Assembly (NCBI GenBank): GCA_951406725.2
Contig: OX597814.1
Span: 224,502,001 to 224,566,000 of the forward strand
From: Octopus vulgaris
Taxonomy: Eukaryota
Reading direction: 5' to 3'
Length of the DNA stretch: 64,000 nt
Made by a program: the position numbers and the translations under genes. The notes beneath the pieces were generated by a model. The model had not been told where the DNA came from, did not search any database, and worked only from the letters and a program-made list of their open reading frames with translations. Shown here in pieces: positions 3,541 to 61,860 of the stretch. Every line of letters begins with the position of its first letter. The first letter of the stretch is position 1.

Positions 3541-3585
3541 TGAACTAGTACTTTCATGCATTAAATTATGCAATCTTCAGGTTCA
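3541..3585 (-). ncRNA. Minimal type I hammerhead ribozyme motif (Penelope-type)
   Basis: Minus strand: UGAAC-CUGAAGA-U-UGCAU-aauuua-AUGCA-U-GAA-AGUACU-A-GUUCA. Stem I UGAAC/GUUCA, intact core, stem II UGCAU/AUGCA, palindromic stem III AGUACU, CUA cleavage triplet. Confidence 0.8.
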
Positions 3586-3661
3586 TGTAGTAGTGGTGAC
3601 AGTCATGCTTCACAATTTTTGACTCAAAAATTGTGAAGCATGACTGTCACCACTACTACAT
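3585..3661. repeat. Perfect inverted repeat, 38-bp arms with 1-nt spacer
   Basis: 3585-3622 is the exact reverse complement of 3624-3661. Confidence 0.97.
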
Positions 3662-3750: not shown

Positions 3751-3751
3751 A

Positions 3752-4045
3752 TTAACGTGCAAGTGACTGAGCACTCCACAGACATGTGTACCCTTAACAG
3801 CGTGATTCAGGGTGTGACAAGGCTGGCCCTTTGAACTACAGGTACAACAGAAACAGGAAGAAACAGTGAGAGAAAGTTGTGATGAAAGAGTACAGCAGGG
3901 TTCACCACCACCCCCTGCCGGAGCCCCGTGGAGCTTTTTAGGTGTTTTCGTTCAATAAACACTCTCAATGCCCGGTCCGAGAATCGAAACCGCGATCCTA
4001 CGACCACGAGTCTGATGCCCTAACCACTAGGTCATTGCGCCTACA
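3752..4045 (-). mobile_element. tRNA-derived SINE family 2, 3'-truncated
   Basis: Head ggcgcaatgacctagtggttagggc...ggtttcgattc; near-colinear with 19672-20060 and 27832-28212. Confidence 0.9.
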
Positions 4046-4163
4046 CACATGCACACACACAAACACACACACACATATATATATATATTTACATATATAT
4101 ATATACATATATATACATATATATACATACATACATACATACATACATACATACATACATACA

Positions 4164-4194
<31 letters not shown>

Positions 4195-7250: not shown

Positions 7251-7713
7251 ATCTAACGATCACGATTTCGGCCTAATTTGTTCATATCTTTGGTGCGACA
7301 AGAACCGTGAATATTTCCTCAATTTTACTGCCTATATATATCCTTAATAATATCCAGAGTAATTGTTATCCATCCATTCATCCATCCATCCCATACATAC
7401 ATACATCATATTATGTTAAATTATGTTATATATACTCTGTATGTAGAAATGTGTTTGCCACTCTATATGTGAGCGTGAGAATGGGAGTGGGTTTGCTCAA
7501 TCGACCATATATTCTCACCACACCTAAATGCTCTCAGTAGTTTTATTAAACTTCTCCACATCCTGTAAAGTGTTGTTTTACATCAAGCTATTTTGTTATT
7601 GAAACTTCATCGCCGCCTTCTTCCTCTTTCTCTTCTGTGATTCGTCACAATTATCATCATCATCATCATCATCATTATTATCATTATTATTATTATCATT
7701 ATTATTATTATTA

Positions 7714-9041
7714 AGGCGGCGAGCTGGCAGAAACGTTGGCACGCCGGGCGAAATGCTTAGCAGTATTTCGTCTGTCTTTATGTTCAGAGTTCAAATTCCG
7801 CCGAGGTCGACTTTGCCTTTCATCCTTTCGGGGTCGATAAATAAAGTACCAGTTACGCACGGAGGTCGATGTAATCGACTTAATCCGTTTGTCTGTCCTT
7901 GTTTCTCCTCTCTGTGTTTAACCCCCTGTGGGTAATAAAGAAATAGGTATTTCGTCTGCCGTTACGGTCTGAGTTCAAATTCCGCCGAGGTCGACTTTGC
8001 CTTTCATCCTTTCGGGGTCGATGTAATCGACTTAATCCGTTTGTCTGTCCTTGTTTCTCCTCTCTGTGTTTAACCCCTTGTGGGTAATAAAGAAATAGGT
8101 ATTTCGTCTGCCGTTACTTTCTGAGTTCAAATTCCGCCGAGGTCGACTTTGCCTTTCATCCTTTCGGGGTCGATTAAATAAGTACCAGTTACGCACGGAG
8201 GTCGATATAATCGACTTAATCCGTTTGTATGTCCTTGTTTGTCCTCTCTGTGTTTAGCCCCTCGTGGGTAGTAAAGAAATAGGTATTTCGTCTGCCGTTA
8301 CGTTCTGAGTTCAAATTCCGCCGAGGTCGACTTTGCCTTTCATCCTTTCGGGGTCGATTAAATAAGTACCAGTTACGCACGGAGGTCGATATAATCGACT
8401 TAATCCGTTTGTATGTCCTTGTTTGTCCTCTCTGTGTTTAGCCCCTCGTGGGTAGTAAAGAAATAGGTATTTCGTCTGCCGTTACGTTCTGAGTTCAAAT
8501 TCCGCCGAGGTCGACTTTGCCTTTCATCCTTTCGGGGTCGATTAAATAAGTACCAGTTACGCACGGAGGTCGATATAATCGACTTAATCCGTTTGTATGT
8601 CCTTGTTTGTCCTCTCTGTGTTTAGCCCCTCGTGGGTAGTAAAGAAATAGGTATTTCGTCTGCCGTTACGTTCTGAGTTCAAATTCCGCCGAGGTCGACT
8701 TTGCCTTTCATCCTTTCGGGGTCGATTAAATAAGTACCAGTTACGCACGGAGGTCGATATAATCGACTTAATCCGTTTGTATGTCCTTGTTTGTCCTCTC
8801 TGTGTTTAGCCCCTCGTGGGTAGTAAAGAAATAGGTATTTCGTCTGCCGTTACGTTCTGAGTTCAAATTCCGCCGAGGTCGACTTTGCCTTTCATCCTTT
8901 CGGGGTCGATTAAATAAGTACCAGTTATGCACGGAGGTCGATATAATCGACTTAATCCGTTTGTATGTCCTTGTTTGTCCTCTCTGTGTTTAGCCCCTCG
9001 TGGGTAGTAAAGAAATAGGTATTTCATCCGTCGCTACGTTT
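7714..9041 (+). repeat. SINE family 1 tandem array: one head, then 7 core-tailA units, five exactly 184 bp
   Basis: Junction aaagaaatAGGTatttc at 7945, 8097, 8281, 8465, 8649, 8833, 9017. Single head aggcggcgagctggcagaaacg at 7714. The core gcctttcatcctttcggggtcgat..aagtaccag resembles the conserved central domain of MetaSINE-type SINEs (from memory). Confidence 0.95.
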
Positions 9042-9144
9042 CATATCACTAGTTTTATATTCTACATTGAAATTTTGTCTCCTTGAACTTGTATTCACAA
9101 ATCATCTGCTGTGCGTATGTGATGGCATTATTTTCCACAACAGA

Positions 9145-9355
9145 AGGCAGCGAGATGGCAGAATCGTTAGAACGCCGGGCGAAATGCTTAGTAATATAAC
9201 GTCTGTCGCTACGTTCTGAGTTCAAATTCCGCCAAGATCGACGTCGCCTTTCATCCTTTCGCGATCGATAAGTCATGTACCAGTTGAGTACTGGAGTTGT
9301 TGTAATCGACTTAATCCCCTCCCTCAAGCTCCCCTTGTGGAAAAAATTTGAAATC
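9145..9355 (+). mobile_element. SINE family 1, older single copy
   Basis: Head ggcagcgagatggcagaatcgttag plus a diverged core and tail. Confidence 0.85.
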
Positions 9356-9409
9356 ATTATTACTGTTGTCGTCGTTGTCATCATTGTCGTTGTCGTCGTC
9401 GTTGTTATA

Positions 9410-10473: not shown

Positions 10474-11514
10474 ATGTGTAAAGGTAAGGTCCAAAGATCA
10501 AGGTGTAAGAAGTTAATAAACTTCGAACAGTCCGTAGAAGGTATAAAAAACAACTTTCAGGAACAAAAATGGTCTATTAACGTAGAAGGTTGTAAATTTT
10601 TCCCGTATCGAAGTTCAATAAGCTGAAAAAGTTATTTTATGGTTTACGGTTAGCAGCTGGGATTCCCAAAATTAGGGAATGGAGTAGATAAAATCCAGGG
10701 TACGTGGGTTTTAAGCTAGCAGAACCTCGGAAGCAATAATTACTCAAACGAGAGGTAATCCGCTAGCTACTCATCAAGCCAAAGATACCTTAATTAAATA
10801 AAGTTTACATTGTGATCAAGGGATCCCATGTTAACTCGCAGGATATTCGATCGATGTATACATAAGTACATATGCATATATATACACATAAATATACATA
10901 CAAACACAGACACGTATATCTATATTTGCATTGTGGAGTCACTGAATGTTTTGGATCTTACAATATATACCCTTATTATTTAGGGCAAGTATAACAACAC
11001 CATATCATAAATCTCAACTTCATGTTAGCGCTGCATAATGATATCATATGTTATACACACACACACACACACACATGCTCATACATATAAATGTATGTAT
11101 AAATGCAAACACTCATATTCTAGTACATCCATACTTAAATCCTAAAAGTAATAACGCCCATAAAATAACACTGAGTGTGTATTTGTTCAATTCACCAAAG
11201 CACACGTACCAATTTTAGCTGTGGGCGTATTTTACTAGCAGTTTCTGTGAAAGTGGAGTTTTACAGAAGATCCACTTCCCATGAAATTCTCCCGATGGAT
11301 CAACGCTTGAAAACCAGCCAGTTAATCTCAGATGACGTGACATAAAATACAAGTTTGTAATGGAATTGGTTAGGCCCAGTATGAATTTATAAATGCATTA
11401 AACTTTAGCAATATTTTCCCTGTATTCTGTATTTGTTGTACAGGATGATGTTACCAGCTATTAACAAAAACAACAACCAGGATAATAATAATTATATTAA
11501 TGATAATAGTAAAT

Positions 11515-11909
11515 CCTTTCTATTACAGGCACAAGGCCTGAAATTTCGGGGAGGGAACCAGTCGATTATATCGACCCCAGTGTTTCACTGGTACTTAATT
11601 CATTGACTCTGAAAGAATTAAAGGCAAAGTTGACATCGGTGGCATTTGAACTCAGGACGTAAAGACGGACGAAATACCTATTTCTTTACTACCCACAAGG
11701 GGCTAAACACAGAGGGGACAAACAAGGACAGACAAACGGATTGAGTCGATTATATCGACCCCAGTGCGTAACTGGTACTTAATTTATCGACCCCGAAAGG
11801 ATGAAAGTCAAAGTCGACCTCGGCGGAATTTGAATTCAGAACGTAACGGCAGACGAAATACGGCTACGCATTTCGCCCGGCGTGCTAACGTTTCCGCCAG
11901 CTCGCCGCC
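11515..11909 (-). mobile_element. SINE family 1 dimer (head-core-tailA-core-tailB)
   Basis: Same gaaatagg/tatttcgtc junction near 11675; the distal core is more diverged. Confidence 0.9.
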
Positions 11910-12064
11910 GTGATATTAATGACAATGATAGAGAACCTTTACTGAAAAACCTATTACATGTTTATTTAGTTATCAGGGATGTTATCTTCAAGTTTAGCAA
12001 CAAGTCTCTTCAAACCTCCAGATTCTTTCTTGGGATTCTTGCAAAATATAGGAAGGTAAAGAAA

Positions 12065-27207: not shown

Positions 27208-27505
27208 ATATAATGTCGCCCTTTTCAAACCTAGCCAGGCTCATGGGCCCGGTTTCCTGGTTTCTGTGGCGTATGCGCTTCCTCCAGCTGGACGGGACGC
27301 CAGTCCATCGCAGCGTTAGCCAAGAAACAGGAAGAAAGAGTGAGAGTAAGTTGGGGCGAAAGAGTACAACAGGGGTCGCCACCACCCCCTGCCGGAGTCT
27401 CATGGAGCTTTAGGTGTTTTCGCTCAATAAACACACACAACGTCCGGTTTGGGAATCGAAACCGCGAGTCAGCTGCCCTAACCACTGGGCCATTGCGCCT
27501 CCACA
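27208..27505 (-). mobile_element. SINE with family-2 head and a different 3' half
   Basis: 27325-27505 matches family 2; it then continues ctgcgatggactggcgtcccgtccag...cagaaacc instead of the family-2 tail. Confidence 0.85.
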
Positions 27506-27831: not shown

Positions 27832-28212
27832 GAAGCACTCCGTCGGTTACGACGACGAGGGTTCCGGTTGATCCGAATTAACGGAACAGCCTGCTCGTGA
27901 AATTAACGTGTAAGTGGCTGAGCACTCCACAGACACGTGTACTCTTAACGTAGTTCTCGGGGATATTCAGCGTGACACAGAGAGTGACAAGGCCGGCCCT
28001 TTGAAATACAGGTACAACAGAAACAGGAAGTAAGAGTGAGAGAAAGTTGTGGTGAAAGAGTACAGCAGGGTTCGTCACCATCCCCTGCCGGAGCCTCGTG
28101 GAGCTTTAGGTGTTTTCGCTCAATAAACACTCACAACGCCCGTCTGGGAATCGAAACCGCGATCCTATGACCGCGAGTCCGCTGCCCTATTCACTGGGCC
28201 ATTGCACCTCCA
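27832..28212 (-). mobile_element. Full-length tRNA-derived SINE family 2
   Basis: Colinear with 19672-20060. Confidence 0.92.
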
Positions 28213-29299
28213 CACACTGCAATTATCATCTTCTGTACCTACTTAGAGTAAAGCTGAGCGGGCCATTAAGAATTAAGTGTACTCGTTATAGGTTTTTTTT
28301 TCACGCTATACATATCATCTTCACTTGAAACACACGTGTCAAACAAAATATGATTATTGGTCCATCTTCTTAGATGGTAACCGTCTCCTTGTGCTTCCTT
28401 GTTGCCAATAATATTTCTGACTTTCCATCCATGACTTCTCCGATGACTACTCTGTCTCGTTGCAGATCTACATGGTTTGAAGCACTGATGACAAACGAAA
28501 GGTGTAACTTACTGTGCCCTTCCAGTTGTTTAGGTCTGCACACGTCGTCACTCTTCCATCGCCATAGGACTTTCAGTACACGGAATGGCAAATTATGTCA
28601 TTATAAAGATTATTGTAATAAACGCTTAGGCCAAAGCGAGATGACCAGTTATCACGTGAATCTGAAAGTTTTACATCAGTGTCCCGCTCCTGGAAGAATA
28701 TACATGCATACATAAATACACACACACACACCATGTTTATACATACATATACATATATATATATATACATACATGTACATACACACACACACATATATAT
28801 ATATAAAATACATACATATATACATACATATATTTGCATCCATCCATACACGCATGCATACACACACACATCCTTTTCTTTTTTGTCCAAGCTTACTGAT
28901 TCCTTATCTTTCGCTCCCTTTCCTTGCTGACCCTCTTTTCGTGATATATGTTTGGCTATTATCTTTTCTCGTTGATGTCTGCCCTCCAGTTTATCAAAAT
29001 AAATGCAATGTGTTTGAGTATAATTTCATCAGTAATAACAACAACAACAACGATAGTAATAACTCTTATTTTCACCACCCGAGACCATTCATTCCTACAA
29101 TAAACATGTTACAAAACCTATACAAAATCCTATGAGGAAGTACAAAACAGTTTTATGAAACGAAAGAGGCGGAGGAAGCGATGTTACACAATATATGGAA
29201 ATATATGAAATATTTTAATTACACAGTTAATAAAATTTACTATATGATTACGTATGACATAAACAGAAATTGAAAAAGCTATAAACTTAGATAAACTTA

Positions 29300-31520: not shown

Positions 31521-31572
<52 letters not shown>

Positions 31573-31576
31573 AACA

Positions 31577-31735
31577 CTTTTCTACTCTAGGCACAAGGCC
31601 CGAAATTTTGGGGGAGGGGAGCCAGTCGATTAGATCGACCCCAGTACGCAACAAGTACTTAATTTATCGACCCCGAAAGGATGAAAGGCAAAGTCGACCT
31701 CGGCGGAATTTGAACTCAGAACGTAAAGACAGACG
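31577..31735 (-). mobile_element. SINE family 1, 5'-truncated tail-B copy inside an (AAT)n tract
   Basis: Core plus tail gccttgtgcctagagtagaaaag; AAT repeats on both sides. Confidence 0.9.
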
Positions 31736-31746
31736 ATAATAATAAC

Positions 31747-35909: not shown

Positions 35910-36220
35910 ATGGAATTGCGCCTAGAAAGTTCCCTTCCGAGGAGCAAGTCTAAGCAACGATGCTTATGGAAGACCAGCAGTCGCCCATGCATACCAGCCT
36001 CCCCTCTCCACGCCACCAGTGTTATCCCGGGGAAAGACAAATGCTGATACAGTTTGGCACCAGTGATATCGCAACTCATTTCTAAAGCTGGATGAACTGG
36101 AGCAGCGTAAAATAAAATGTCTTACACAAGAATTCAACACAGAGCCAGGTGTGGGAATCGAACTCACTACCTCATAATTGAGGGCCCGGTGCCCCTACCC
36201 ACTGAGCCATTCGCCTGCCA
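35910..36220 (-). mobile_element. tRNA-derived SINE family 3
   Basis: Homologous to 44228-44560; head tggctcagtgg...gagttcgattcc. Confidence 0.85.
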
Positions 36221-36932: not shown

Positions 36933-37349
36933 TAGGATTACATTGGTTCAGTGATAAAAGACTTGTCCTGCTAACGGGAGATGTGCGTTAGAGTCCCACG
37001 GGTAGCCTTCAATCTCTTCTACTCATACGGCTTTATCTGGACCCCATTGCTTGACTAGTATTTATTTTATCGACCTCGAAACGACGAAAGGAAAAGTTGA
37101 CCTCGTCGAAATTTGATCTCAGAATGTAAAGATGAACAAAATGGCATTAAGCATTTTGTCCCACGCGCTAATAATTCTGTCAACTCGCCACCTTTTGTCG
37201 GTGGAAAATACATCAACCGCAAGACTTGACTAGTTCTTATTTTATCAACATCTTGAAGGATAAAAGGCAAAGTGGTCCTTGGAGAAATTTGAACGTAAAG
37301 TCGGACGCTAACGATCCTGCCAACTCGCTACATTTTGTTGGTGGAAAAT

Positions 37350-38175
37350 AAACCTTTCTACTCTAGGCAGAAGGCCTGAAATTTGGGGGGAGAAGATAGT
37401 CGATTCTTTTCTACTCTAGGCACAAGGCTCGAAATTTTTGGGGAGGGGGTCAGTCGATTAGATCGAACCCGGTACGTAGCTGGTACTTAATTTATCGACT
37501 CCGAAAGGATGAAATTTGAACTCAGAAGGTAAAAACGGACAAATACCTATTTCTTTACTACCCACAAGGGACTAAACACAGAGAGGACAAACAAGGACAG
37601 ACAAACGGATTAAGTCGATTATATGGACGCCAGTACGTAACTGGTACTTATTTAATCGACCCCGAAAGGATGAAAGGCAAAGTTGACCTCGGCGGAATTT
37701 GAACTCAGAACGTAACGGCAAACGAAATATTATCAAGCATTTCGCCCAGCTTGCTAACGTTTCTGCCAGCTCGCCGCCTTGTAAAGGGATAGCCGATTAC
37801 ATCGACCCCAGTACTCAACTGGTACTTTATTTATCGACTCCGAAAGGATGAAGGGCAAAGCCGACCTAGGCGGAGTTTGAACTCAGAACGTAGCGACAGA
37901 CGAAATATTATCAAGCATTTCGCCCGGCGTTCTAACGATTCTTATTTCTTTATTGCCCACAAGGGGCTAAACATAGCGGGAACAAACAAGGACAGACAAA
38001 CGGATTAAGTCGATTACATCGATCCCAGTGCGTAACTGGTGCTTAATTTATCGACCCCGAAAGGATGAAGGGCAAAGCCTACCTCGGCGGAATTTGAACT
38101 CAGGACGTAGCGACAGATGTTATATTACTAAGCATTTCGCCCGGCGTTCTAACGATTCTGCCATCTCGCTGCCTT
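37350..38175 (-). mobile_element. Nested cluster of SINE family 1 copies
   Basis: At least four cores, heads near 37779 and 38172, both tail A and tail B present. Confidence 0.9.
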
Positions 38176-38552
38176 CTGTTGTGGAAACTAATGCCATCAC
38201 ATACGCACAGCAGATGATTTGTGAATACAAGTTCAAGGAGACAAAATTTCAATGTAGAATATAAAACTGAAAATACTCTGATGAGATATAGCAGATCTTT
38301 TACATCAATCAAGTTTACATGAATGTGTTTGTAAAGTCAACTGAATAATGTGTGGAATTGGTTCAAACATGCTATATTTGTGTTGGTAAAGTCAAAATAT
38401 TTATCGGCAGATAATTGATAGCAGCAGAGAATAAATGTAAATAACTTGCATATTTTAAAACTAGTACGAGTTATTCTGTCGGGAAAGGTTTTTTCTTGCT
38501 CATTTAAAAAAAAAAATTAAACTAAGCGATTCTATTGTGTTGAGACTGAAAC

Positions 38553-38693: not shown

Positions 38694-38912
38694 CGAGGGG
38701 TGCTGAAATGTTCCTGGCTTTGGGCAAAAGAAAATACAGGAAGATCAGTTAATTATGATTTTATTCAACATATTCCCCTCTCAGATTCACACACTTATTG
38801 CAGCGGTCCTTTCATTTTTCCTAAGCCCTGTAAAAAAAAACTCAGATGATTGGTCCTCCAGCCAGGCCTTTCGCGATACTCTAAAAGCCAGGAACTTTTC
38901 AGCACCTCTTCG
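38694..38912. mobile_element. Mariner-derived MITE with TA duplication
   Basis: TIRs cgaggggtgctgaaatgttcctggcttt / aaagccaggaacttttcagcacctcttcg flanked by TA; minus strand retains the transposase C-terminus KDRCNKCVNLRGEYVE*. Confidence 0.9.
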
Positions 38913-39006
38913 TAAGACTGAACAAATTTTCATTTGCTAAACATTGTCAAAACTAGACCCTACATAATTCTGTTTCTGATCGAATAATATTTGGCTACAA
39001 CGATAC

Positions 39007-39241
39007 CTATTTCTTTACTACCCACAAGGGGCTAAACACAGAGAGAACAAAAAAGGACAGACAAACGGATTAAGTCGATTATATCGACACCAGTGCGTAA
39101 CTGGTACTTATTTAATCGACCCCGAAAGGATGAAAGGCAAAGTCGACCTCGGCGGAATTTGAACTCGGAACGTAACGGCAGACGAAATACTGCTAAGCAT
39201 TTCGCCCGGCGTGCTAACGTTTCTGCCAGCTCGCCGCCTTC
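39007..39241 (-). mobile_element. Full-length SINE family 1 monomer (tail A) with target-site duplication
   Basis: Flanks tggctacaacgatac (38992-39006) and tggctacaataatac (39242-39256), 13/15 identical. Confidence 0.92.
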
Positions 39242-40182
39242 TGGCTACAATAATACTGATAACGATAGCGCATATGAAATTAACGAGAGTTTTTATTGAA
39301 CTAATTCTACAATGGCTCACAGCCTGTTAGTCTGTGTCTAATATGTCTGATTGGCTAAAATAGTACACGTAACAACGATGAAACTAAAGGTCTTCTACGT
39401 AAGACCGCAACAGATATGATAAGATATATTTAAAAAATTGATAACGTTCTTATCATTTTACAGTCTTATTCTTACTTCTAAGAATCGATAAAAACTGACA
39501 TTTGCATGTCAAATCCAATTCATTTCCTTTACTTGTTTGTCATAACAATCTAAAAATTTTACATTTTGACCTTGTCTGTTCTGAGTTCAAATCGTTCTTA
39601 ATTGTCTTTACTTTTCAATCCTCCACAGTCAATAGCAAACAATCGACTATGCCTTTCTCCAGCAATGTACGAGCAAATGTTTATATCACATTACTGGTGT
39701 CCGTGTCGGCCCGAGGCTATGGTACGAGACACTTGCTTGAACGTCTCCACTTTTTGCATCTCTGCATATAAACATGATTTGTATTTCATACCCAAACTGT
39801 TATATTTAATATCTCTAACTTGTTTATCCACACAATTGCCTCTACACACATTTATCTTTATATGTGAGATCATAACACATAAAAACATGGAGAAAATTGT
39901 GCACCTATGCAAATAAAGGTGCTAATTTAAAAAAATAATAATAAATGCATAAGACTATGCATCTGAAAAATGTGTAATTCTTAGAGGTATGTGCATAACT
40001 GAATACTTCTATTTACGTTTGCGTATGTGCATGCGTTTCAATATGCAAGTGTTTAATTACAGGCGTCATTTTGTGCACTTAAATACACATATATTCAATA
40101 GAGACATAAAGCTATAACATATATACATATACATGTATGTATGTATATATATCTATAATATATATATATACAACATATAAAT

Positions 40183-43658: not shown

Positions 43659-44227
43659 GAGGTAGGAATGTAAATATCTTGATTTCTGTGAGCACCGGTC
43701 GAAAGACTGTCGTGAATAAGTGTAAAGGCTTTTGGTCGTAAAGGGTACTTTGTATTAGCTACAAGAGTCTCGTTGCTGAAATGTGTTTGTCATGGATAGA
43801 AGGCGATAAGGCTGCTCGCTACAACGGTTGTCTGAATTTTCCCCGCTTTCACCAATTAGGTATACCTGTTGATATACCATCTTACAAATCGCTGACTGGC
43901 TGAATAAAACTAATTCAACTAATCAACCCGTCAAGTAATTCTCTGAATGAAAGTTTGTACGGCTAGCAGGTCATAAATGTAGTTCACTTTTATTAGAAGA
44001 GGTTCATTGCACATCCATATAATCGGTGGGTTGTATCTAATTGTCCCATACATTGGCAATGCTAAGATATTCTTGTACTGCAGAAGGTATCAACTATGTT
44101 CTGGTGGGAGGGGGTCATTCTATTATCCTACAACGTTAATTTCCACAAGTACTGCGTTCGTACGTTTTTAACAGAGCCGTCAAAAACATTTAACAAAATT
44201 GAAGCATAATATATATTTCATCATAGT

Positions 44228-44560
44228 GAAGGCGCATGGCTCAGTGGTTAGAGCGTCGAGCTTACGATCGTGATGTTGTGAGTTCGATTCTCGGACCGGG
44301 CTGCGTGTTGTGTTCTTGAGCAAGACACTTTATTTCACGTTGCTCCAGTTAACTCAGCTGTAGAAATGAGTTGCGACGTCACTGGTGCCAAGCTGTATCG
44401 GCCCCTTTGCCTTTCCCTTGGATAACATCTGTGGTATGGAGAGTGGAGGTTGGTATGCTTGGACGACTGCTGGCCTTCCACAAACAATCTTGCTCGGACT
44501 TGTACCTTGGAGGGTAACTTTCTAGGTGCAATCCCATGGTCATTCATGACAGAAGGAGCT
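44228..44560 (+). mobile_element. tRNA-derived SINE family 3 (CORE-like segment ttgtgttcttgagcaagacactt)
   Basis: A box tggctcagtgg, B box gagttcgattc; further copies at 61531-61860 and 35910-36220. Confidence 0.9.
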
Positions 44561-50917: not shown

Positions 50918-51134
50918 GACGTATATTTGCCATTTAAATATGGCTAACCCCTAAGGGTGGATGCTACTGTAGTTTGTAGCTTCAGGAGGACACCTCCGCC
51001 AGCTGGCTATAAACACAATATAGGGCACAGAAAGTGTGTCTATAGCCAGCTGGAGGAGGTGTCCTCCTGGGGCTACAAACTACAGTAGCATCCAGCCTTA
51101 GGAGTTAACCATATTTAAATGGCAAATATACGTC
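50918..51134. repeat. Long inverted repeat, about 100-bp arms with a short spacer
   Basis: gacgtatatttgccatttaaatatgg...gctggctata.acac mirrored with several mismatches. Confidence 0.95.
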
Positions 51135-51888: not shown

Positions 51889-52297
51889 CGCAGGAGTGGC
51901 TGTGTGGTAAGTAGCTTGCTTACCAACCCACATGGTTCCGGCTTCAGTCCCACTGCGTTGCACCTTGGGCAAGTGTCTTCTGCTATAGCCCCGGGCCGAC
52001 CAAAGCCTTGTGAGTGGATTTGGTAGACGGAAACTGAAAGAAGCCCGTCGTATATATGTACATATATATATGTGTGTGCGTGTATGTTTGTGTGTCTGTG
52101 TTTGTCCCCCTAGCATTGCTTGACAACCGATGCTGGTGTGTTTACGTCCCCGTCACCTAGCGGTTCGGTAAAAGAGACCGATAGAATAAGTACTGGGCTT
52201 ACAAAGAATAAGTCCCGGGGTCGAGTTGCTCGATTAAAGGCGGTGCTCCAGCATGGCCGCAGTCAACTGACTGAAACAAGTAAAAGAGTAAAGAGTA
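51720..52297 (+). mobile_element. SINE family 4: partial head (51720-51850), (TA)n, full copy (51888-52297)
   Basis: Head ggagtggctgtgtggtaag...ttcagtcccactgcg, segment caccttgggcaagtg, internal TA/TG microsatellite, tail ggcggtgctccagcatggccgcag...ctgaaacaag. Confidence 0.92.
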
Positions 52298-56466: not shown

Positions 56467-56681
56467 ACTCCTTTACTCTTTTACTTGTTTCAGTCATGTA
56501 ACCATGCTGGAGCACCGCCTTTTAGTCGAGCAAATCGAACCCAGGACTTATTCTTTGTAAGCCTAGTACTTATTCTATCGGTCTCTTTTGCCGAACCGCT
56601 AGGTTACGGGGACGTAAACACACAAGCATCGGTTGTCAAACGATGTTGGGGGGACAAACATATACACACACACACACACAT

Positions 56682-56724
<43 letters not shown>

Positions 56725-56862
56725 TACGACAGGCTTCTTTCAGTTTCCATCTACCAAATCCACTCACGAGGCTTTGGTCGGCCCGAGGCTATAGTAGTAG
56801 ACACTTGCCCAAGGTGCCACACAGTGGGACTGAACCTTGAGCCATGTGGTTGGTAAGCAAGG
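56467..56862 (-). mobile_element. SINE family 4 copy
   Basis: Reverse complement of most of 51888-52297. Confidence 0.92.
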
Positions 56863-57611: not shown

Positions 57612-58655
57612 TACATACATACATAGATACATACATAGATACATACATACATACATACATACATACATACATACATACATACATACATACATACATACAT
57701 ACATACATACATACATACATACATACATACATACATACATAGATACCTACATACATACATACATACATACATACATACATACATACATACATACATACAT
57801 ACATACATACATACATACATACATACACACATACATACATACATACATACATACATACATACATACATACATAGATACCTACATACATACATACATACAT
57901 ACATACATACATACATACATACATACATACATACATACATACATACATACATACATACATACATACATACATACATACATACATACATACATACATACAT
58001 ACATACATACATACATACACACATACATACATACATACATACATACATACATACATACATACATACATACATACATACATACATACATACATACATACAT
58101 ACATACATACATACATACATACATACATACATACATAAATACATACATACATACATACATACATACATACATACATACATACATACATACATACATACAT
58201 ACATACATACATACATACATACATAAATACATACATACATACATACATACACACATACATACATACATAGATACATACATACATACATACATACATACAT
58301 ACATACATACATACATACATACATACATACATACATACATACATACATACATACATACATACATACATACATACATACATACATACATACATACATACAT
58401 ACACATACATACATACATACATACATACATACATACATACATACATACACACATACATACATACATACATACATACATACATACATACATACATACATAC
58501 ATACATACACACATACATACATACATACACACATACATACATACATACATACATACATACATGCATACATACATGCATACATACATACATACATACATAG
58601 ATACCTACATACATACATACATACATACATACATACATACATACATACATACATG
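57612..58655. repeat. About 1-kb (TACA)n microsatellite with variant units
   Basis: Direct reading; explains the 239-400 aa IHTY/MYVC ORFs. Confidence 0.98.
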
Positions 58656-58949
58656 CATATATATATATGTGTGTGCGTGCATATATTTATGTATATGTAT
58701 GTATGTGTATGAAAATGAGTGCGTGTGTGTTTTAACCAGAGCTCACGCGTTCAAAGTGGTTTGAAGTCAGACTGGATCTATGAGATGGTAACTCAAGTTA
58801 TCAGAAAAAGCATATTTGACAACAAGACTAATTCGTTTAAATTTCATTTCGCAAACTACACGAACATGTAAGCACACACATACACAAGTACGAAAACCAA
58901 AATCGTGTGAAAATTGAACGATTTATTTTTTCCCTTCTTTCTATTGTTT

Positions 58950-59368
58950 CTTATTTCTTTACTGCCCACAAGGGGCTAAACGTAGAGGGAACAAACAAGG
59001 ACAGACAAACGTATTAAGTCGATTATATCGACCTCAATGCGTAACTGATACTTCTTTAATCGACCCCGAAAGGAAGAAAGGCAAAGTTGACCTCGGCGGA
59101 ATTTGAACTCATAACGTAGCGGCAGACGAAATACCTATTTCTTTATTACCCACAAGGGGCTAAGCACAGAGAGGACAAACAAGGATAAACAAAGGGATTA
59201 AGTCGATTACATCGACCCTGGTGCGTAACTGGTACTTAATTTATCGACCCCGAAAGGATGAAAGGCAAAGTCGACCACGGCGGAATTTGAACTCAGAACG
59301 TAACGGCAGACGAAATACGGCTACGCATTTCGCCCAACGTGCCAACGTTTCTGCCAGCTCGCCGCCTT
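58950..59368 (-). mobile_element. SINE family 1 dimer (head-coreA-coreA)
   Basis: Junction gaaatagg/tatttcgtc near 59133. Confidence 0.92.
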
Positions 59369-60649: not shown

Positions 60650-61121
60650 GCATACATACATGCCAAAGACATACATTGGTGTTACATGATGGAACATACA
60701 GAAGCTGTTGAGTGATGTTCTCAATGTTATTTCGTATTTCATATCAACCATCGCAGTTCTGTGCTGAAATCTCGCCGGTGTTAACTCTGTCTTATATTCC
60801 TACGGAGCATTTAAAAGAGGAAGCAATAGATTTACAGTCGTCGACAAAGTTGGATGTGTCTCTCCTTTGAAAATGCGTGACGTTTTTACCCTTGTGAAAA
60901 GCTCTTAGCACACTGTTGTCAAACAAAGTGCGAAAATGTCTACTGCAAATAACTGCAGACAATAACGTCAGTTGCTTTCACTGTAGTCAGGGTTACACAT
61001 CTTTTACAAAGCAAGAACGTGTAACTAAGATCTTAATAACATAAAAAAAACAATAATTATAACAGTAATGAAAACAAGAAAACAGAAAACAAAAAATAGC
61101 AATATATATTATTAATATTCT

Positions 61122-61511
61122 TTTCTACTCTAGGCACAAGGCCTGAAATTTCGGGGGAGGGGGCAGTCGATTAGATCGACCCAAGAACGTAACTAGCACT
61201 TAATTTATCGACTCCGAAAGGATGAAAGGCAAAGTCGACCTCGGCGGAATTTAAACTCAGAACGTAGCGGCAGACGAAATAGCTATTTCTTTGCTACCCA
61301 CAAGGAGCTAAACACAGAGAGGACAAACAAGGACAGACAAACGGATTAAGTCGATTATATCAACCCCAGTAACTGGTACTTATTTAACCGACCCCGAAAG
61401 GATGAAAGGCAAAGTCGACCTCGGCGGAATTTGAACTCAGAACGTAGCGGCAAACGAAATACTGCTAAGCATTTCGTCCGGCGCGCTAACGTTTCTGCCA
61501 GCTCGCCGCCT
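61122..61511 (-). mobile_element. SINE family 1 dimer (head-coreA-coreB)
   Basis: Junction gaaatagc/tatttcgtc near 61282; tail B at 61122-61165. Confidence 0.92.
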
Positions 61512-61530
61512 TGCAACATATTAATAATGT

Positions 61531-61860
61531 GAAGGCGCATAGCTTAGTGGCTAGAGTGTCGGACTTATAATCATGAGATAGTGAGTTCGATTCCTGGACC
61601 GGGCTATGTATTCTGCTCTTGAGCAAGACAATTTACTTCACGTTGCTCCAGTTTACTTAGCTGTAAAAATGAGTTGTGACGTCACAGGTACGAAGCTGTA
61701 TTATTGGCCTTTGCTTTTAGTTTGGATAACATCGGTGGCGTAGAGAGGGGAGGCTGAAATGCATGGGCGACTGCTGGTCTTCCACAAACAACCTTGCTCA
61801 GGCTTGTACCTCGGTGGGGAACTTTCTGGTCGCAATCCCGTGCTCATTCATTTGGTAACC
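61531..61860 (+). mobile_element. SINE family 3 copy
   Basis: Colinear with 44228-44560. Confidence 0.88.

Follow-up and report, generated by a model that had tools for sequence, protein, structure and literature searches.

Copies of a SINE-like family in Octopus vulgaris joined at one fixed core position to other, on the whole older, copies of the same family, with a seven-unit tandem array at one locus

Within a window of 64,000 nucleotides from Octopus vulgaris (the whole stretch of DNA that was analysed, and to which all positions refer), A-type tails of a SINE-like family run directly into the core of another copy of the same family, and they do so at one fixed point: 13 of the 16 tail-A ends are joined to core position 49/50, seven of them in a tandem array at 7714-9041 and six at five other loci, making six loci in total. 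The distal partners, i.e., the copies that stand behind the junction, are of mixed type and on the whole older than the tail-A units in front of them. We give about an even chance to the explanation that a young tail-A RNA ending in a piece of its own core primes at that piece and lands in older copies, with unequal exchange then expanding the resulting stacks.

The family occurs at ~20 loci and covers ~7.0 of the 64 kb; a complete element consists of a head of 49 nt, a core of 118 nt and a tail, for which there are several types (A, the older A', B and C). We take it to be an octopus-type tRNA-derived SINE. Read by eye, the head has a tRNA-like A box and the element both A and B boxes; with regard to the SINEBase yardstick of at least 60% identity to a tRNA over 60 nt, ARAGORN predicted 0 tRNA genes in the window, and Rfam gave no tRNA match for 7600-9400. 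In every copy, core positions ~92-140 contain GTCGA repeats which are self-complementary, allow alternative pairings and have no Rfam match, a part of the core which may resemble a domain of Sauria SINEs. In tails A, B and C alike, CCC/GGG or GGC/GCC arms enclose a CTTGT motif, an arrangement that resembles a LINE-recognition stem-loop. Neither tail-only matches nor a LINE partner were found in the 64-kb window, for which 72 stop-to-stop frames were listed. Searches by sequence pattern turned up 2 matches in metagenome, 0 in viral and 1 in prokaryote collections, all of them due to chance and without the element. Set against the SINEBase description of a SINE (short, interspersed, at least 100 copies), the family is short and interspersed, and 540,833 contig records of the public run X1 align to it; target site duplications (TSDs), also considered by SINEBase, are convincing at one of the nine loci tested, weak at five and absent from three. 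Octopus tRNA-derived SINEs that have been named include OK, OR1 and OR2 (PMC4824008, PMC4758252, PMC3531059). For the O. vulgaris assembly 11.6% SINEs are given (PMC13282606), which is near the share of the window covered by the family.

The window DNA itself is AT-rich and dense in microsatellites, some of them very long (~264 TACA copies at 57612-58667, ~204 AAT copies at 17486-18097 and ~105 TATC copies at 14680-15098). It also holds a second dispersed repeat family of ~380 bp whose members are 80-92% alike (19680-20062, 27835-28214, 3751-4192 and 27323-27505), two more dispersed families of 300-400 bp (44226-44547, 61529-61851 and 35910-36216; and 51915-52293 and 56471-56861) and long palindromes, perhaps MITEs, at 50918-51134 (217 bp, 88%) and 3585-3661 (77 bp, 99% self-complementarity). 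The array adjoins an ATC/ATT repeat at 7650-7713, tails B and C often run into ATT repeats, and a headless tail-B copy at 31565-31742 (minus strand) has ATT repeats on both sides.

The array (locus a) and the DNA directly behind it are made up of the following features.

7714-7762, plus strand: single SINE head of the young type (element positions 1-49), 1/45 differences
7763-7946, plus strand: unit 1, B-type core start and tail A, 184 bp
7947-8098, plus strand: unit 2, 152 bp, 32 bp lost between two GGTCGAT direct repeats, 6 differences from unit 1
8099-9018, plus strand: units 3-7, five core-tailA units of 184 bp, 0-2 pairwise differences
9019-9041, plus strand: old-type core stub of 23 nt that closes the array, 4 differences from the young core in ~22 nt
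9051-9230, plus strand: patch of 180 bp, 94 bp of it unique DNA and the rest a head with core start; matches 38089-38268 (opposite strand) at 177/180
9231-9350, plus strand: remainder of an old core with tail C, 20/87 differences from 38002-38088, the stretch directly after the patch source

A reading of this DNA made from the letters alone (the sequence-only reading) had described one head followed by seven headless units, five of them nearly identical and 184 bp long. Both statements were confirmed: six units measure 184 bp and one 152 bp, the 23-nt stub comes in addition, and the five near-identical units are units 3-7. TRF reports a period of 184, 5.6 copies and 98% matches. There is no tail B at the end of the array, which closes with the old-type stub followed by the 180-bp templated patch. 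This patch was probably inserted here, splitting the distal unit of the array, in which case 9231-9350 would be the continuation of the stub, i.e., the true distal unit. The two members of the patch pair (9051-9230 and 38089-38268) lie 29 kb apart with one end within SINE homology, and the pair looks like a recent templated repair insertion.

The substitutions T148G and G150A are common to units 1 and 3-7, and the pair is absent from every other copy in the window; units 1 and 2 have tail changes in common, and units 3-7 two further changes. As these private changes are common to units of the array, they point to local amplification and not to seven separate insertions, and this local origin of the units is well supported. 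The sequence-only reading had proposed that repeated rounds or unequal exchange turn the SINE into a satellite. The seven units of the array arose by local duplication, and locus c (below) fits two rounds; with 1.3 kb and seven units this is a short tandem array and no satellite in the usual sense.

The other loci on which the argument rests all lie on the minus strand.

11678-11910, minus strand: locus b, young head-core-tailA with a lineage-specific head variant
11505-11677, minus strand: locus b, old headless core with tail B, 10/102 differences
22336-22751, minus strand: locus c, head and two unlike tail-A units, which differ at 14/184
21975-22335, minus strand: locus c, core-tailB without head, which runs at head position ~17 into an older tail-C copy
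37405-37779, minus strand: locus d, head-core-tailA running into a headless tail-B core that has lost 22 bp
37783-38174, minus strand: older tail-A' copy joined via a second junction (head 16/17) to a tail-C-type copy
39007-39239, minus strand: locus f, young tail-A monomer in unique DNA, with a target duplication (13/15 match) that starts GTAT directly behind the tail
58952-59367, minus strand: locus g, young head-core-tailA running into an older core-tailA' without head, units differing at 26/184
61115-61511, minus strand: locus h, head-core-tailA joined to headless core-tailB

The two A units of locus c (22336-22703) have no private change in common, which would fit two separate insertion rounds. 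At 37783-38174 the copies that flank the second junction have the rare changes A97G, T105C and G50A in common (positions 17-105), resembling a 90-bp duplication around the tail-A' insert; this pattern may record homologous 5' joining or local conversion. Further family fragments are chained behind the dimer of locus d at 37030-37450 (minus strand), one of them joined from tail B to core position ~160.

Outside the array the tail ends that carry the junction lie at 11679, 22337, 22521, 37548, 59136 and 61284, within 1-3 bases of where the sequence-only reading had placed them. That reading also had several arrays ending in tail B, which holds for four loci (11505, 22171, 37408 and 61120) but not for the array at 7714. 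Three tail-A ends behave otherwise: that at 39008 runs with GGTAT into unique DNA, and two older ones read AAATA-AGAA, continuing into unique DNA at 58952 and into head position 16/17 at 37943. The 8-mer GTATTTCG is present 17 times in family copies (seven of these in the array) and one time in the remaining 57 kb. The older tails are joined to other copies where their own ends match, AGAA at head 16/17 and GAAT at head 17 or core 160. The junction site coincides with the loop end of a 12-13 bp hairpin in which the 3' part of the head pairs with the core start (12.9 expected pairs), and this hairpin loop may have helped the first event. Pol III terminates at runs of T; as neither the array nor the dimers of loci b and h contain four T in a row, Pol III could read through the junction. 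A model in which the tail end pairs with the top strand at the target as an R-loop was set aside, older tail-A' copies having the same end without use of the 49/50 site.

To look for the junction genome-wide, contigs of four public runs (X1, X14, X13 and X16) were aligned to the monomer locus at 38890-39350 with 80% likeness required, a setting under which joints from further family copies also appear. The joint figures come from 15 listed of 1121 joints and are lower bounds, contigs are not copy counts, and run X16, RNA by guess and available as contigs only, has no bearing on expression or circles. Among the tail-A-end joints listed, the 49/50 class accounts for 99/113 contigs in X1, 52/60 in X16, 6/9 in X14 and 9/19 in X13. 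The sharp junction peak that had been predicted for nested insertion is thus present in the window, and the same class dominates the best contig run. In X1, 35/99 of these listed joints are the exact 184-base joint. The other 64/99 pick up again 11-21 nt inside the core, with unknown letters in the gap; since the consensus of loose ends at these two places is of B/C type, such joints may represent old-type core starts. The second junction (head position 16), present in the window at 37943, was found among the joints listed in all four runs (5, 3, 10 and 8 contigs). A further 884 loose ends in X1 lie directly behind GTAT and give a core-start consensus with only 0.43 agreement, and hence many tail-A ends run past GTAT into other DNA. 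Ordinary insertion would duplicate 14 nt and leave a second head, giving a joint between core position 63 and a new head; the joints listed include this one in 3, 0, 1 and 3 contigs, too few to count.

The ratio of tail-A to head depth is 0.64 in X1, 0.12 in X14, 0.31 in X13 and 1.27 in X16 (contig depth, not copy number), which hints at a lineage-specific rise of tail A. The head variant of locus b (11910) makes up 18.6% of the depth in X1 and <0.3% in X14 and X13. On the flanks of locus f the contig depth is equal on both sides in X14 (55.6) and X13 (7.08), with no element-free joint among the 15 listed; this equal depth may represent a single contig without the element.

The distal units had been predicted to be older than the tail-A units, and overall they are: over six loci and 118-bp cores, with 16 polymorphic columns omitted, distal cores differ from the consensus at 40/575 positions and proximal cores at 17/611 (p=0.001), the distal value being higher at 5/6 loci. 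However, two loci carry this result. Without locus a, whose distal unit is a reconstruction across the patch (stub, 180-bp patch, old core with tail C), p rises to 0.037, and without loci a and b the counts are 17/386 and 12/407 (p=0.34). The greater divergence claimed for the distal unit at 11515-11680 was upheld, 11560-11677 differing at 10/102 positions against 2/102 for its proximal unit. An age gap that comes from two loci, in a set of only six, counts against nested insertion.

The distal tails are B, A' and, as we would reconstruct locus a, C, and the partners thus come from several subfamilies. A single clade for all six distal cores was rejected (p-AU 0.0012), and the dimers are neither of one type nor of one clade, as would be expected if they all went back to one ancestral dimer. 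That origin, which the sequence-only reading had named as the outcome that would overturn it, is therefore rejected for the six taken together but not for the four tail-B dimers, whose distal cores as one clade give p-AU 0.08 (0.17 for three of them) and of which 3/4 have G119A; in the distal-core tree 1/20 inner branches is well supported. The tail-B clade that was not rejected counts against nested insertion as well, as do the weak TSDs of the multimers, whose flanks are AT-rich with cross-pairs scoring equally, such that no ageing is possible from them. TSDs around whole dimers, also proposed as a mark of one ancestral dimer, do not give a sharp test, because nested insertion likewise leaves the TSD of the old copy around the dimer. 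By contrast with the multimers, the monomer at locus f, the only young monomer in the window, has a TSD with a 13/15 match that 0/16 cross-pairs equal (shuffle p 0.01).

The heads do not fit the earlier proposal in its original form. At 7714 and 11910 they differ from the young consensus at 1/45 positions, beside distal cores that are 10-15% diverged, and the claim that the old head of the target is kept fails at both loci. Insertion of young tail-A copies at a GTAT within existing copies was thus upheld by the sharp junction and by the mixed, on the whole older partners, but not in respect of the head: with young heads at loci a and b, nested insertion needs the old head to be replaced. The model can be saved if the head copy of the cDNA invades and replaces the old head. 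A comparable step has been proposed for R2, whose cDNA, carrying 27 nt of the upstream target, would invade it (PMC6895275).

For the RNA 3' end, the priming by annealing, the LINE partner and the resolution of the heads, we infer the following course of events. A young tail-A subfamily would have acquired its own core start behind its tail, the RNA running on with GGUAUU(UCG...), and the partner LINE would prime reverse transcription where nicked DNA anneals to this RNA extension. The main target of the extension, GGUAUUUCG, would be the family itself; as its best genomic matches are family copies at 49/50, new copies would end up within older members of whatever subfamily. The cDNA's 5' end, homologous to the head or core of the target, would join by strand invasion and leave one head, old or new. 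Once two cores stand in tandem, slippage or unequal exchange at the DNA level could expand the 184-bp unit, as at 7714. The GTAT-start TSD of the monomer, together with the older tails that join at matches to their own ends, makes the rule look like priming by annealing to an RNA 3' extension.

Other routes could lead to the same arrangement. It is somewhat unlikely, in our judgement, that dimeric or multimeric master loci (head-core-tailA-core-tailB) were retroposed whole, with monomers made via internal priming and unequal exchange acting later. Such masters would account for the base-exact junction and for the lack of an internal T4, and they explain the young heads without a replacement step; the tail-B distal cores (p-AU 0.08, G119A in 3/4) agree with them, as does a TSD-like 13/14 match that flanks the dimer of locus b, though 2/16 cross-pairs score equally, and dimeric SINEs are well known (PMC10702118, PMC3531059). 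They are harder to reconcile with distal tails of types B, A' and probably C, with the rejection of one clade for the six, and with loci a and b, where the distal unit is ~4-5 times more diverged than the proximal one from at most 10 nt after the junction. Masters may well act alongside nesting, because any new stack can become a source. Repair at the DNA level alone, in which a break in an old copy is mended from a dimer that bears the junction, the ends annealing to different cores and one unit being gained without RNA, seems distinctly unlikely. It accounts for both the exact junction and the mixed partners, the 180-bp patch looks like such repair across 29 kb, one of its ends lying in SINE homology, and the distal core of locus h begins A-like and finishes B-like; but the switch points should then scatter over the 118 bp, whereas old-type changes start within ~10 nt of the junction at loci a, b, c and d, and a monomer with a TSD in a unique GTAT target is left unexplained.

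The joining might also take place in RNA, reverse transcription starting on any family RNA, stalling at or running off the head hairpin and switching to a tail-A RNA, or a loop-cleaved RNA being ligated to a tail-A end. We hold this to be quite improbable: the young heads and the position of the junction at the loop of the 12-13 bp hairpin would be expected, and RtcB ligation before retrotransposition has been demonstrated for U6/L1 (PMC6789731), but copies that are 10-15% diverged would have to be frequent templates during tail-A activity, and the multimers as wholes should be flanked by young, clean TSDs, where those found are weak. Rolling-circle copying, an alternative named by the sequence-only reading, would have the transcript cut in the head loop, the 184-nt unit circularised and reverse transcription running round it to write identical units. 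Units 3-7 are indeed near identical, the unit size is within the range of animal retrozymes (PMC7761336), and the two termini of the 184-nt unit pair with one another (10.4-10.8 expected pairs, 0/100 shuffles as high for each of three units, in a test picked after the pairing had been seen). Against this, the alternative found no ribozyme support, with no Rfam ribozyme family at E up to 5 and no CTGANGA hammerhead core on either strand; 5/6 loci hold one or two A units unlike each other and unlike the older distal unit, the array units have private changes in common with unit 1, and in an intact monomer the partner of the core start is the head and not the tail (12.9 vs 0.05 pairs). The two matches that Rfam did return are both due to chance, and fold stability above shuffles is absent (z -1.41 for the whole monomer, -0.02 for the unit). 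We regard the rolling circle as very improbable. Very improbable, too, is a far-reaching form of the insertion reading, by which the young subfamily would be self-homing: a 3' guide would lead it to the hairpin site of its own family, about a million older copies would be colonised, heads overwritten, 184-bp satellites seeded, and the headless unit, with its paired ends, released as a ribozyme-free circular RNA and copied round.

Zepp of Chlorella reportedly inserts into earlier Zepp copies, giving rise to tandem stacks. Zepp is an autonomous telomeric LINE (named as telomeric in PMC10088271), whereas the element described here is a SINE spread through the genome. R2 resembles it in having a fixed insertion site, the 3' junction here being likewise fixed in the window and in the contigs, and in that invasion of the upstream target by the cDNA has been proposed with no duplicated upstream sequence (PMC6895275). 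However, R2 is autonomous and reaches its 28S rDNA target via a protein (PMC6895275), while the octopus element is non-coding, targets its own family and would owe its specificity to RNA-DNA annealing. The non-LTR retrozymes of animals likewise form tandem units of 150-300 bp, but are defined by hammerhead ribozymes and circular RNAs (PMC7761336), and the units here lack a hammerhead.

The anatomy of one head followed by headless units is already published, from squamates (PMC10702118) and the blood clam (PMC11481361), where the arrays (the SINE-derived satellites sSat1-3 and those of the clam) are treated as duplications within or between copies. In sSat1-3 tandem units of part of a SINE end in one longer terminal unit that reaches the SINE end; the units are 70-290 nt long and homogeneous in long loci, and unequal recombination and insertion at the same locus are named as possible origins (PMC10702118). 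Judged by the features that define sSat, the array at 7714 has an extended terminal unit, at least four middle monomers and homogeneous units (3-7, 0-2 bases apart). Unlike it, sSat1-3 loci have up to hundreds of units, where the octopus array has seven, and a subtelomeric tendency, and the part of PMC10702118 available describes neither a fixed self-priming junction nor an older distal partner of another subfamily. The arrays of Scapharca broughtonii, also a mollusc, have the form TSD-(SINE)n-TSD, in which a first SINE with a full head is followed by 4-15 units truncated at one position of the tRNA head (PMC11481361). Their internal tails are truncated and the last is complete, which reads as internal duplication of one copy (PMC11481361), whereas here tail A is complete in the internal units and the last unit is of another, older subfamily. 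What is distinct in the octopus family is therefore the full and different tail on internal units, the older end partner from another subfamily and the one fixed junction genome-wide. No description of a fixed self-priming junction was found in the literature searched, mostly without subscription papers and Repbase, and neither PMC9795677 nor the SPLASH preprint has a passage with SINE as a whole word.

Conversion of interspersed into tandem repeats is usually guessed from its end products. In the octopus a single genome may hold the stages next to each other: a monomer at a GTAT site, a dimer on an older copy, a stack of four ages and a fresh array of seven units. If self-targeting is true, age estimates would be biased, because headless cores are scored as separate truncated insertions. 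And if a SINE sets its target via the RNA behind its tail, one accident would be enough to create a self-reinforcing target bias, which would spare genes and rejuvenate old copies.
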